The notes beneath the pieces were generated by a model, which searched no databases, was not told the origin of the DNA, and saw nothing but the letters and a program-made list of their open reading frames with translations. From the NCBI RefSeq assembly GCF_003334385.1, contig NZ_QOWN01000097.1: a DNA stretch of 3,000 nt. The stretch is one strand, 5' to 3'. Source of the DNA: Escherichia coli (GTDB lineage: Bacteria > Pseudomonadota > Gammaproteobacteria > Enterobacterales > Enterobacteriaceae). The position numbers were made by a program, and so were the translations under genes. Of this stretch, positions 1-3,000 are shown in pieces. Each line of letters opens with the position of its first letter. Position 1 is the first letter of the stretch.

Positions 1-3000
1 ACGCTGGCGCGGCTGTGGGGGGCGCTGCCGCCGGATATCCGGTTAAGCCCGCATCTTTACCTGGCGACCAACAGCGCACAGGGGCCGTGGTGGATACTGG
101 GGTGGTCTGAGCGGGTGCCGGGTGCTGAGGACGTACTGCCAGCGCCGCTGCCGCCGTACCGGGTGCTTACCGGGATGGCGGACCGCTTCGGGCGGACGCT
201 GACGTACCGGCGTGAGGCCGCCGGTGACCTGGCCGGGGAAATCACCGGCGTGACGGACGGTGCCGGGCGGGAGTTCCGTCTGGTGCTGACCACGCAGGCG
301 CAGCGTGCGGAAGAGGCCCGCACCTCTTCGCTATCTTCTTCTGACAGTTCCCGCCCTCTCTCAGCCTCAGCGTTCCCCGACACACTGCCCGGTACCGAAT
401 ACGGCCCCGACAGGGGTATCCGCCTTTCGGCGGTGTGGCTGATGCACGACCCGGCATACCCGGAGAGCCTGCCCGCTGCGCCACTGGTGCGGTACACGTA
501 TACGGAAGCCGGTGAACTGCTGGCGGTATATGACCGCAGCAATACGCAGGTGCGCGCTTTCACGTATGACGCGCAGCACCCGGGCCGGATGGTGGCGCAC
601 CGTTACGCGGGAAGGCCGGAGATGCGCTACCGCTACGACGATACGGGGCGGGTGGTGGAGCAACTGAACCCGGCAGGGTTAAGCTACCGCTATCTTTATG
701 AGCAGGACCGCATCACCGTCACCGACAGCCTGAACCGGCGTGAGGTGCTGCATACAGAAGGCGGGGCCGGGCTGAAACGGGTGGTGAAAAAAGAACTGGC
801 GGACGGCAGCGTCACGCGCAGCGGGTATGACGCGGCAGGAAGGCTCACGGCGCAGACGGACGCGGCGGGACGGAGGACAGAGTACGGTCTGAATGTGGTG
901 TCCGGCGATATCACGGACATCACCACACCGGACGGGCGGGAGACGAAATTTTACTATAACGACGGGAACCAGCTGACGGCGGTGGTGTACCCGGACGGGC
1001 TGGAGAGCCGCCGGGAATATGATGAACCGGGCAGGCTGGTATCGGAGACATCGCGCAGCGGGGAGACAGTACGCTACCGCTACGATGACGCGCACAGTGA
1101 GTTACCGGCGACGACAACGGATGCGACGGGCAGCACCCGGCAGATGACGTGGAGCCGCTACGGGCAGTTGCTGGCGTTCACTGACTGCTCGGGCTACCAG
1201 ACCCGCTATGAATACGACCGCTTCGGCCAGATGACGGCGGTCCACCGCGAGGAAGGCATCAGCCTTTACCGCCGCTATGACAACCGTGGCCGGTTAACCT
1301 CGGTGAAAGACGCACAGGGCCGTGAAACGCGGTATGAATACAACGCCGCAGGCGACCTGACTGCCGTTATCACCCCGGACGGCAACCGGAGCGAGACACA
1401 GTACGATGCGTGGGGAAAGGCGGTCAGCACCACGCAGGGCGGGCTGACGCGCAGTATGGAGTACGATGCTGCCGGACGTGTCATCAGCCTGACCAACGAG
1501 AACGGCAGCCACAGCGTCTTCAGTTACGATGCGCTGGACCGGCTGGTACAGCAGGGCGGCTTTGACGGGCGGACGCAACGTTATCATTATGACCTGACCG
1601 GAAAACTCACACAGAGTGAGGATGAGGGACTTGTCATCCTCTGGTACTACGATGAATCGGACCGTATCACTCACCGCACGGTGAACGGCGAACCGGCAGA
1701 GCAGTGGCAGTATGATGGCCACGGCTGGCTGACAGACATCAGCCACCTGAGCGAAGGCCACCGTGTTGCCGTCCACTATGGCTATGACGATAAAGGCCGC
1801 CTGACCGGCGAATGCCAGACGGTGGAGAACCCGGAGACGGGGGAACTGCTGTGGCAGCATGAGACGAAACACGCATACAACGAGCAGGGGCTGGCAAACC
1901 GCGTCACGCCGGACAGCCTGCCGCCGGTGGAGTGGCTGACGTATGGCAGCGGTTACCTGGCGGGAATGAAGCTGGGCGGGACGCCGCTGGTCGAGTATAC
2001 GCGGGACAGGCTGCACCGTGAGACGGTGCGCAGCTTCGGCAGCATGGCAGGCAGTAATGCCGCATACGAACTGACCAGCACATACACCCCCGCAGGCCAG
2101 TTACAGAGCCAGCACCTGAACAGCCTGGTATATGACCGTGACTACGGGTGGAGTGACAACGGCGACCTGGTGCGCATCAGCGGCCCGCGACAGACGCGGG
2201 AATACGGCTACAGCGCCACGGGCAGGCTGGAGAGTGTGCGCACCCTCGCACCAGACCTGGACATCCGCATCCCGTATGCCACGGACCCGGCGGGCAACCG
2301 GCTGCCGGACCCGGAGCTGCACCCGGACAGTACACTCACAGTGTGGCCGGATAACCGCATCGCGGAGGATGCGCACTATGTCTACCGCCACGATGAATAC
2401 GGCAGGCTGACGGAGAAGACGGACCGCATCCCGGCGGGTGTGATACGGACGGACGACGAGCGGACCCACCACTACCACTACGACAGCCAGCACCGCCTGG
2501 TGTTCTACACGCGGATACAGCATGGCGAGCCACTGGTCGAGAGCCGCTACCTCTACGACCCGCTGGGACGGCGAATGGCAAAACGGGTCTGGCGGCGGGA
2601 GCGTGACCTGACGGGGTGGATGTCGCTGTCGCGTAAACCGGAGGTGACGTGGTATGGCTGGGACGGAGACAGGCTGACGACGGTGCAGACTGACACCACA
2701 CGTATCCAGACGGTATACGAGCCGGGAAGCTTCACGCCGCTCATCCGGGTCGAGACAGAGAACGGCGAGCGGGAAAAAGCGCAGCGGCGCAGCCTGGCAG
2801 AGACGCTCCAGCAGGAAGGGAGTGAGAACGGCCACGGCGTGGTGTTCCCGGCTGAACTGGTGCGGCTGCTGGACAGGCTGGAGGAAGAAATCCGGGCAGA
2901 CCGCGTGAGCAGTGAAAGCCGGGCGTGGCTTGCGCAGTGCGGGCTGACGGTGGAGCAACTGGCCAGACAGGTGGAGCCGGAATACACACCGGCGCGAAAA
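1..3000 (+). CDS. Rhs family protein (RHS/YD-repeat polymorphic toxin core), internal fragment; both the start and the stop lie outside the window
   Basis: Frame +1 is uninterrupted by stop codons for all 1000 codons (my manual translation, line by line). The translation carries many copies of the Rhs/YD motif (Y-x-Y-D-x-x-G-R-L/V), e.g. [13 protein letters not shown] (nt 625-663), [12 protein letters not shown] (1207-1242), [13 protein letters not shown] (1267-1305), [10 protein letters not shown] (1582-1611), [12 protein letters not shown] (1777-1812), [14 protein letters not shown] (2377-2418), [12 protein letters not shown] (2548-2583). The window starts [20 protein letters not shown] and ends ...[15 protein letters not shown], with [26 protein letters not shown] at 2737-2814. 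GC content is high with GC-rich third positions, as known for Rhs cores. Paralog (rhsA/B/C/D-like) cannot be determined from the core alone, so the gene symbol is left empty. Confidence 0.95.
490..2694 (+). repeat. YD-repeat (RHS repeat) array at the protein level within the Rhs CDS; about 25-28 degenerate units of roughly 20-25 residues, not a nucleotide tandem repeat
   Basis: Recurring Y-x-Y-D / YD-x-x-G-R-L motifs in frame +1, at approximately aa 164-178, 189, 209-221, 229-238, 276-286, 318-326, 340-346, 359-362, 403-414, 423-435, 445-453, 468-473, 488-496, 509-516, 528-537, 549-556, 571-577, 593-604, 709-726, 735-745, 793-806, 825-836, 850-861 and 885-898. Unit boundaries are approximate and read by eye. 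Confidence 0.75.

Follow-up and report, generated by a model that had tools for sequence, protein, structure and literature searches.

The GC-rich core of Escherichia coli rhsD and its AGG arginine codons as a probable legacy of a GC-richer substitution regime

Why should a gene residing in E. coli be so rich in GC, and why does it use so many CGG and AGG arginine codons? A sequence-only reading of the locus took these features as a mark of foreign origin. The stretch analyzed here, the window, comprises 3000 nucleotides (1..3000, plus strand) and is open throughout in frame +1, with no stops, as against 8–43 stops in each of the other five frames. It lies inside the rhsD core ORF and covers codons 154–1153 of a 1426-codon gene. 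The best database match, rhsD of E. coli strain SCU-104 (NZ_CP053284.1), is identical at 2999 of the 3000 bases, the sole difference being at position 723, which bears out the guess that the host is E. coli. The window is 99.87% identical to K-12 rhsD (four bases different) and 97.1% identical to the rhsE remnant; its nucleotide identity to rhsA, rhsB and rhsC is 76.6–76.7%, which corresponds to the divergence of about 22% that characterizes the RhsD/E subfamily. The NCBIfam equivalog profile NF041261 (RHS_core) matched the window over profile positions 154–1156 of 1261 with 2173.5 bits, above the curated cutoff of 2000. We are thus dealing with the middle of E. coli rhsD, which encodes the YD-repeat core.

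The surroundings of the gene are familiar. The locus has the order ybbP-rhsD-ybbC, as in K-12. The small downstream gene, ybbC, is a cognate immunity gene by annotation only, and it is followed by a pseudogene annotated as 'RHS repeat-associated core domain, missing N-terminus', i.e., an orphan core fragment. In one strain rhsD is bordered by IS elements; in SCU-104 the gene lies without them. Of 5426 complete E. coli genomes, 3872 carry sequences similar to the window, at 1–11 places in each (median 6 per genome), and near-identical cores are fused to VgrG in other strains. Within the 3000 nucleotides, no Rfam family or tRNA and no DNA repeats longer than 37 nt were found.

The encoded protein has the architecture of an Rhs core. 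The main run of YD/RHS repeats (Pfam PF05593, TIGR01643) occupies positions 499..1809 on the plus strand (aa 167–603), and a further weak repeat lies at 2149..2241, plus strand (aa 717–747; Pfam RHS_repeat E = 0.023). Altogether, PF05593 matched the window 8 times at E<=0.001 and 15 times at E<=10, and TIGR01643 (YD_repeat_2x) gave E = 5.9e-49 over 6 stretches. The rest of the source gene was scanned as well, the RhsD protein being submitted to Pfam in two pieces. The N-terminus carries DUF6531 and a non-significant 18-residue PAAR fragment (PF05488, residues 3–20, E = 0.097). The C-terminal part contains the RHS domain PF03527 (E = 3e-16), followed by DUF4329 (E = 3e-37). The core ends, as is typical of RHS cores, at the PxxxxDPxGL motif, here PLQQIDPMGL (aa 1249–1258, source locus 23286–23315, outside the window), with a variable toxin tip beyond it.

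The composition of the window clearly sets it apart from its host. Its GC content is 64.3% (GC1/GC2/GC3 = 65.8/49.1/78.0%), in agreement with the initial estimate of 60–65% with G/C-biased third positions, and every 300-nt window within the stretch has 58–71% GC. Among its 103 arginine codons there are 37 CGG (35.9%) and exactly 10 in-frame AGG (9.7%), where the earlier reading had counted about ten. The 31 flanking genes have 52.8% GC and 57.3% GC3, with AGG and CGG making up 1.4% and 12.2% of arginine codons; their usage would give 1.4 AGG (binomial P = 1.9e-6) and 12.6 CGG (P = 5e-10). Both GC and GC3 of the window are higher than in all 31 of these genes and in all 279 sliding 3-kb windows of background E. 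coli DNA (153 kb, of which 136 kb came from the same genome and 17 kb from another strain), whose GC averages 50.7% (SD 3.8, maximum 58.2%; z = 3.6 for the rhsD window). The tetranucleotide deviation, 0.410 against a background of 0.199±0.039 (maximum 0.328), and Karlin δ*, 153 against 56±24 (maximum 124), also fall outside the sampled host range; the segment is strongly atypical of E. coli. The k-mer signature of the window is confounded by repeated peptide motifs.

Not every index is so extreme. The codon adaptation index, 0.374 vs. 0.432 for the pooled flanking genes, is unremarkable, 11 of the 31 genes being lower still, and no AGG-AGG tandem is present in the window, so the low translational efficiency suggested at first sight has little to recommend it. 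Lysine codons (12 AAA and 3 AAG) are host-like and unlike what a GC-rich donor would be expected to leave, with n = 15 only. The boundaries of the composite are sharp: upstream DNA has 26% GC, the core about 64%, and the tip 36% with a GC3 of 16.5%. A GC-rich core and an AT-rich extension are thus joined in one ORF, as in the E. coli Rhs composites defined by Hill.

How much of this excess calls for a historical explanation? Of the 11.5 points by which the window exceeds its flanking genes, about 4.2 come from amino-acid composition, the protein being rich in Arg, Thr, Asp, Gly and Tyr and poor in Lys, Ile and Phe; recoded with host codon usage, it still gives 57.0% GC vs. 52.8% in the flanking genes. 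About one third of the excess is therefore amino-acid composition and not codon choice. Among 54 Rhs loci compared from many hosts, 46 had a core richer in GC than its flanks (median difference over the loci 4.4 points), from which it follows that about half of the excess is typical of Rhs cores in most hosts. Core GC follows flank GC across loci (r = 0.83, slope 0.64), the regression being based on total flank GC, as longest-ORF flank GC3 is unreliable in GC-rich hosts owing to spurious ORFs. The trend predicts about 58–59% GC for a core in an E. coli-like host; the window lies 5–6 points above it (about 2 residual SD), and only these 5–6 points are lineage-specific.

These data, together with the S. 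marcescens core of 67.7% GC beside a tip of 46.4% (PMC2935791), speak for the possibility that GC richness is intrinsic to the Rhs family, arising from amino-acid make-up and constraint on repeat-coding DNA, with no foreign ancestry implied. We regard this as unlikely to be the whole explanation, since host codon usage would give a GC3 of 57% vs. the 78% observed and the family regression leaves the window well above its line. Moreover, in a single genome of C. youngae, cores that are equally related have GC3 values as different as 79.8% and 65.6%, and Trabulsiella has four identical core copies with a GC3 of 68% beside flanks of 59–66%. The GC→AT bias of changes among E. coli alleles, described below, points in the same direction. 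The claim of foreign origin is thus supported in part: the Rhs core is GC-rich and host-atypical, and part of the excess on which it relied is derived from amino acids or from the family.

If the core came from a GC-richer background, a donor might be sought among its relatives. We examined the best 80 loci out of 100,044 species genomes, and no GC-rich donor of matching composition was found among them. Within this set, all relatives with at least 57% identity belong to Enterobacteriaceae, with flank GC mostly of 51–59% and up to 62.5% in one MAG, and the GC-rich hosts Delftia, Pseudomonas and Halomonas contributed only cores of 27–39% identity. (The homologous proteins recovered in a separate search came almost entirely from E. 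coli and Shigella and were uninformative on donors.) The GC-rich, AGG/CGG-rich signature extends across the entire enterobacterial clade, reaching members with about 60% amino-acid identity, and fits poorly with one recent import. The divergence between the Rhs subfamilies is old: rhsA and the window, at 77% nucleotide identity, differ at 174 of 415 four-fold sites (42%), and GC4 is 0.82 and 0.81, so that the D/E and A/B/C subfamilies have diverged at constant GC, both having about 81% at four-fold sites. The three subfamilies, with their GC-rich core and AT-rich extension, are summarized in PMC2935791, where Jackson et al. (2009) argue that the Rhs family is ancient and long resident in Enterobacteriaceae.

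The direction of present-day change was read from 12 E. coli alleles of 93–99.9% identity. Singletons in this set are clustered in recombination blocks and hence are not independent point mutations. They comprise 107 S→W vs. 39 W→S changes (P = 1.6e-8 against 1:1), and those secured by an outgroup 56 vs. 18. Derived changes at synonymous third positions (67:22) give an equilibrium GC3* of 0.54 (95% CI 0.41–0.66) vs. the present 0.78. Polarizing with an outgroup that is 42% divergent is biased in favor of GC as the ancestral state. A singleton polarization in six strains (57:45) was set aside as unreliable, four of the six belonging to one clade. With an equilibrium so far below the present value, the composition of the core is out of equilibrium and is decaying toward that of the host rather than being locally maintained. 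The core has the same per-site rates of GC→AT vs. AT→GC change as the neighboring host genes, in which the changes number 51:25 (S→W:W→S) with a GC3* of 0.46, and its decay is slow. In this respect, the proposal that the Rhs core came from a GC-richer background gained support, although no donor emerged.

The same data bear on the idea that high GC3 is actively maintained in E. coli, either by GC-biased gene conversion among 4–7 recombining paralogous cores or by selection at the DNA level. The cores are indeed multi-copy and visibly mosaic, all 12 alleles keep to 63.9–64.7% GC despite up to 7% divergence, and the point estimate of GC3* is somewhat above that of host genes. Yet S→W changes prevail among the derived ones, the confidence interval excludes 0.78, and no difference from the host flanking genes can be discerned in the ratios of the per-site rates. 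In addition, the multi-copy cores of Trabulsiella stay near host GC3, and no link of Rhs to biased gene conversion was found in the literature searched. Active maintenance is thus very unlikely.

The AGG codons, all on the plus strand, deserve separate consideration. As noticed in the earlier reading, several recur in two contexts: GGC AGG CTG, encoding G-R-L, at 1033..1035, 2224..2226 and 2404..2406, and GAC AGG CTG, encoding D-R-L, at 2008..2010, 2671..2673 and 2875..2877. A further G-R-L (GGA AGG CTC) has its AGG at 841..843, and the remaining three lie in D-R-G (412..414), G-R-P (613..615) and, after CGG, R-R-T (874..876). Several of these codons recur in other cores: AGG is also found at 841..843 in rhsA, E. 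albertii and Citrobacter, it is kept at 2224..2226 in rhsA, E. albertii and C. youngae, and AGG or AGA occupies 613..615 in cores of Citrobacter, Trabulsiella, Lelliottia and Mixta. Elsewhere the column changes its amino acid. Relatives have Asn or Ser (AAC/AAT/AGT/AGC) at 412..414, most have Lys (AAA/AAG) at 874..876, and several have Asn (AAC/AAT) at 2875..2877. For instance, the column at 2404..2406 has AGG in Escherichia and Citrobacter, AGA in Trabulsiella, AGC (Ser) in Lelliottia and Mixta, and AAC/AAT (Asn) in Serratia, Erwinia and Citrobacter sp. R56. When homologues have Arg at the AGR columns of the window, they use AGR in 39 of 97 cases vs. 64 of 872 at CGN columns, and when they lack Arg, the residue is Lys, Asn or Ser 65% of the time vs. 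17% at CGN columns. By this comparison, AGG is mostly an inherited codon tied to particular positions, within the AAN/AGN codon block at the repeat-turn arginine, and does not simply reflect a GC-driven synonymous preference. As for avoidance of the restriction site CCGG as a cause of AGG after C-ending codons, we discarded it: the window has 53 CCGG vs. 51.6±3.7 in synonymous shuffles.

The regular placement of AGG could also mean that rare codons are selected at the G-R-L turns, slowing the ribosome once per repeat and aiding co-translational folding of the beta-shell. AGG does occupy 7 of the 16 motif arginine positions vs. 3 of 87 elsewhere (P = 5e-5), its occurrence before Leu is significant in a synonymous-codon shuffle (P = 2e-4), the enrichment is seen again in 9 other enterobacterial cores, and AGR persists in the same columns across genera. 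Nevertheless, we consider such pausing highly improbable. Between rhsA and rhsD there is no special conservation of AGG, which is kept at 3 of 8 sites with Arg in both genes, a share no higher than for the other Arg codons (34 of 77); the enrichment is missing from the distant cores of Serratia, Diaphorobacter and Delftia; and, given the Asn, Ser and Lys alternatives in these columns, ancestry alone would account for AGR.

Taken together, the results lead us to believe that the high GC, the extreme GC3 and the abundance of CGG and AGG are probably a historical legacy of a GC-richer regime. This clade of Rhs cores would have long been under a GC-richer substitution regime, presumably in a different, GC-richer host, and the core, now in Escherichia, would be ameliorating slowly toward host composition. 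At the repeat-turn positions (G/D-R-L), Arg interchanges with Asn, Ser and Lys by changing one base at a time inside the AAN/AGN block, and the preference for G in third position yields AGG instead of AGA at the inherited AGR sites, the AGG codons probably being tolerated through weak expression of the gene. We see only a slim chance that there was no single GC-rich donor at all and that the clade keeps its GC-rich, AGR/CGG-rich style by circulating among hosts or by partial shielding from host codon pressure, with the AGG of G-R-L functionally retained, e.g., as pause sites.

Textbook knowledge since the 1990s, the combination of a GC-rich core and an AT-rich tip in Rhs elements was the basis for proposing that they had come into E. 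coli from outside; the GC-rich cores were reportedly already known from the work of Hill and of Wang, Zhao and Hill in 1998. The pattern in rhsD is therefore already known, and our analysis mainly confirms it. The refinements are the three-way split of the GC excess, the allele evidence for decay and the explanation of AGG by codon-block ancestry. They leave the understanding of Rhs biology unchanged and may be of use wherever GC or codon indices are employed to call foreign DNA in genes for repeat proteins.

According to the amelioration model of Lawrence and Ochman, horizontally acquired genes drift toward the composition of their host. The rhsD core resembles such genes in its atypical GC, GC3, codons and oligonucleotides, in its sharp boundaries and in its host-ward substitutions. 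Being GC-rich, the rhsD core is unlike the bulk of alien DNA in E. coli, which is AT-rich. Further differences are that the excess in rhsD is partly family-typical and that the family is apparently old in Enterobacteriaceae (PMC2935791). With respect to the PAAR-Rhs effectors, known in the context of T6SS delivery (PMC6730261), RhsD differs in having only the 18-residue PAAR fragment together with DUF6531. Its YD-repeat core can nonetheless be aligned with the solved Rhs shells of Tse5 from P. aeruginosa (8cp6), RhsA from P. protegens (7q97), S. bongori Rhs (8qja) and Photorhabdus Tre23 (7pq5); the alignments with solved T6SS effectors extend over 600–770 residues (E from 1e-121 to 1e-40), and these effectors share with RhsD the conserved RHS domain and PxxxxDPxGL before the toxin tip. 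By this homology, the RhsD core may form a shell around its C-terminal toxin. From the E. coli RhsD/E elements (Hill; clade I of Jackson 2009) the locus differs in nothing substantive: here as there, the GC-rich core runs into an AT-rich tip, with a small gene and an orphan core fragment farther downstream.

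The window lies within the rhsD gene, as codons 154-1153 of the 1426-codon reading frame in the ybbP-rhsD-ybbC locus. Frame +1 is open throughout, without stops, while the other five frames contain 8-43 stops; the translation passes the NCBIfam RHS_core model (2173.5 bits, cutoff 2000) and bears at least eight significant Pfam RHS repeats. A megablast search revealed similar sequence in 3,872 of the 5,426 complete E. coli genomes, with 6 such places in the median genome; the best match was to rhsD of strain SCU-104 (one mismatch, position 723). Identity is 99.87% to K-12 rhsD, 97.1% to the K-12 rhsE remnant and 76.6-76.7% to rhsA/B/C. 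RhsD carries DUF6531 at its N-terminus, where a PAAR match was a non-significant fragment, and its core ends with PLQQIDPMGL (aa 1249-1258), followed by the DUF4329 tip. Searches of the window for Rfam families, tRNAs and long DNA repeats found none. Its antisense ORFs of 285 aa (2101-2958, minus strand) and 240 aa (1294-2016, minus strand) gained no support as genes and are an expected artefact of the GC-rich sense frame; one antisense frame is interrupted by only 8 stops over the 3 kb.

The GC content of the window is 64.3% (GC1/GC2/GC3, 65.8/49.1/78.0%), and every 300-nt segment falls between 58 and 71%. As a host baseline we used 31 flanking genes (10,577 codons; GC 52.8%, GC3 57.3%), and the window exceeded all 31 in both GC and GC3. 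Its 103 Arg codons comprise CGT 16, CGC 36, CGA 3, CGG 37, AGA 1 and AGG 10, whereas host usage (AGG 1.4% and CGG 12.2% of Arg) would give 1.4 AGG (P = 1.9e-6) and 12.6 CGG (P = 5e-10). The background of 153 kb of E. coli DNA (136 kb of the same genome and, from strain 300709, the 17-kb ribosomal-protein locus) had 50.7±3.8% GC in 3-kb windows, with a maximum of 58.2%. Tetranucleotide deviation (0.410 vs. 0.199±0.039, maximum 0.328) and dinucleotide δ* (153 vs. 56±24, maximum 124) were also beyond the sampled range, both k-mer measures being partly confounded by repeated peptide motifs. The sequence-only reading, by which the window would be atypical for a host such as E. coli, is borne out, and its counts proved exact.

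The codon bias is not "GC-rich" across the board. It is T-ending codons that are especially avoided (ATT in 0 of 23 Ile codons; GGT 10% of Gly vs. 34% in flanking genes). A-ending codons are unavoided, with ATA serving for 3 Ile, and Lys codons are host-like (AAA 12, AAG 3). AT skew is +0.2 to +0.35 over most of the window. A low-complexity Ser-rich stretch of TCT/TCC/TCA codons at 322-375 shows locally negative GC skew, and the 100 codons around it are among the least conserved relative to rhsA (68% nucleotide identity).

The rhsD locus as a whole is a composite with sharp steps in GC, from 26% immediately upstream to ~64% across the N-terminal part and the core, then to 36% in the tip (GC3 16.5%), beyond which lie an orphan core fragment of ~50% GC and further AT-rich DNA. 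The last ~110 core codons before PLQQIDPMGL (L001, 23001-23330, immediately past the 3' end of the window) are host-like (GC 51.5%, GC3 56%), so that the GC-rich block stops ~300 nt before the core/tip junction. In strain CUPS TF 6/1_01, two ISVsa5 copies (L095, 4218-5426 and 10168-11376) bracket rhsD and a truncated immunity gene, an arrangement like that of a composite transposon.

The GC excess has several sources. When the window protein was recoded with host codon usage, GC was 57.0% and GC3 57.1%; hence, of the 11.5-point excess, amino-acid composition supplies ~4.2 points (Arg 10.3 vs. 4.8%; Thr, Tyr and Asp higher; Lys, Ile and Phe lower), and codon choice accounts for the remaining 7.3. 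A profile search with the window and nine diverse relatives, covering 100,044 species with one genome apiece, yielded the best 80 loci, 54 of which had 4 kb or more of flank outside rhs. Among these 54, core GC follows flank GC (r = 0.83, slope 0.64) and exceeds it in 46 (median 4.4 points). For an E. coli-like host, the regression predicts a core of 57.9-59.2% GC, so the window is 5-6 points higher still, about 2 residual SD.

Among the best 80 loci, the relatives with at least 57% identity were all Enterobacteriaceae (E. albertii, Citrobacter, Trabulsiella, Lelliottia, Enterobacter), and no GC-rich donor emerged, because the cores found in GC-rich hosts have only 27-39% identity. GC3 in the close clade ranges from 66 to 80%, and C. 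youngae alone has one core of 79.8% and another of 65.6%, a spread that speaks for separate histories and against a property fixed for the family. Trabulsiella odontotermitis carries four apparently identical cores in one genome, at or near contig ends (L015, L016, L017, L043), with GC3 of 68%, near the 59-66% of their flanks and unlike E. coli cores. Rhs cores 73-77% identical to the window were also met on MAG contigs labelled Akkermansia muciniphila or Collinsella (L019, 1182-3572; L037, 1-1062); they look enterobacterial and probably reflect binning contamination, and L034 (Acidovorax) is already flagged UNVERIFIED_CONTAM.

The high GC might be a legacy of an earlier, GC-richer regime or be maintained locally by biased gene conversion or selection. 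Among 12 D/E-subfamily alleles from E. coli (93-99.9% identical, all 63.9-64.7% GC), singletons, which cluster in recombination blocks, comprised 107 GC→AT and 39 AT→GC changes (67:22 at synonymous third positions). With rhsA as an outgroup, whose divergence biases polarisation toward GC-ancestral calls, the ratio was 56:18 for singletons where rhsA matched the majority and 68:43 for non-singletons. The equilibrium GC3 that these changes imply for the core is 0.54 (95% CI 0.41-0.66) vs. 0.78 at present. Host flanking genes of six strains gave 51:25 (34:18 at synonymous third positions; equilibrium GC3 0.46), a six-strain subset of the core alleles giving 57:45, and the per-site rate ratios of the core were indistinguishable from those of the flanking genes. 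These allele comparisons indicate that the core is under the host regime and losing GC, which favours legacy and disfavours local maintenance. Of 415 four-fold sites compared between rhsA and the window, 174 differ, yet both sequences are ~81% GC there. The same logic lies behind "diverged prior to acquisition by E. coli", as Wang et al. 1998 is titled in the references of PMC2935791. Private differences of divergent alleles come in blocks (L095, L099 and L100 aligned with the window; columns ~2400-2700, 2700-3000 and 1500-2400), indicating that cores are mosaics of recombination between alleles or paralogues.

The AGG codons (plus strand, in-frame count: 412, 613, 841, 874, 1033, 2008, 2224, 2404, 2671, 2875) are unevenly placed: they make up 7 of the 16 Arg codons in [G/D]-R-[L/V/I] motifs vs. 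3 of 87 elsewhere (P = 5e-5), with GGC AGG CTG and GAC AGG CTG three times each. Nine further enterobacterial cores show the enrichment as well, whereas distant ones do not; CCGG avoidance does not account for it. The 7-nt CAGSCTG occurs 11 times on the plus strand (726, 1032, 1485, 1914, 2007, 2121, 2223, 2403, 2670, 2790, 2874), always in the register NNC AGS CTG (x-Arg/Ser-Leu), vs. 0.63 expected in dinucleotide shuffles and 2.9±1.5 in synonymous-codon shuffles; its variants CAGGCTG (6) and CAGCCTG (5) are mutual reverse complements. In a column-wise comparison of 16 cores, Arg homologues used AGA/AGG in 39 of 97 cases at columns where the window does so vs. 64 of 872 at CGN columns, and non-Arg homologues were Lys/Asn/Ser in 65 vs. 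17%. Across genera, window codon 802 runs through AAC/AAT, AGC and AGA/AGG, and window codon 292 through AAA/AAG and AGG. This pattern indicates that AGG is mostly inherited and position-specific rather than a free synonymous choice, being the state of a repeat-turn residue moving within the AAN/AGN codon block, and such codon ancestry explains the AGG codons. Between rhsA and rhsD, AGG showed no special conservation (3 of 8 sites vs. 34 of 77 other Arg codons).

The low translational efficiency proposed from these codons is plausible but weak. Minor Arg codons (CGG, AGG, CGA, AGA) form half of the window Arg vs. 21% in the flanks, and the codon adaptation index (reference, 25 ribosomal-protein genes) is 0.374 vs. 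0.432 for the pooled flanking genes; however, 11 of the 31 neighbours score lower, and the window has no AGG-AGG tandem.

As for foreign origin, the legacy composition appears real and decaying, but the excess is partly driven by amino acids and family, and no donor was found among the 80 loci. A GC-rich Rhs core with an AT-rich tip is already known: Jackson et al. 2009 (PMC2935791) summarised the GC-rich core plus AT-rich extension and the three E. coli subfamilies rhsABCF, rhsDE and rhsGH, and reported for S. marcescens 67.7% GC in the core vs. 46.4% in its tip. They argued for an ancient presence of rhs genes in Enterobacteriaceae, with E. coli clade I loci older than the species, and noted that base composition within one clade varies between genomes. 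Given this match, our finding correctly identifies known biology. In other E. coli strains, VgrG domains (PF04717, PF05954) stand N-terminal to 97-99%-identical cores (proteins P0012-P0015, P0060-P0071), so that one core serves with different delivery modules. E. coli Rhs proteins have been reviewed as T6SS-linked polymorphic toxins (PMC6730261), and the relatives with solved structures are T6SS Rhs effectors, namely Tse5, P. protegens RhsA, the S. bongori Rhs core and Tre23.
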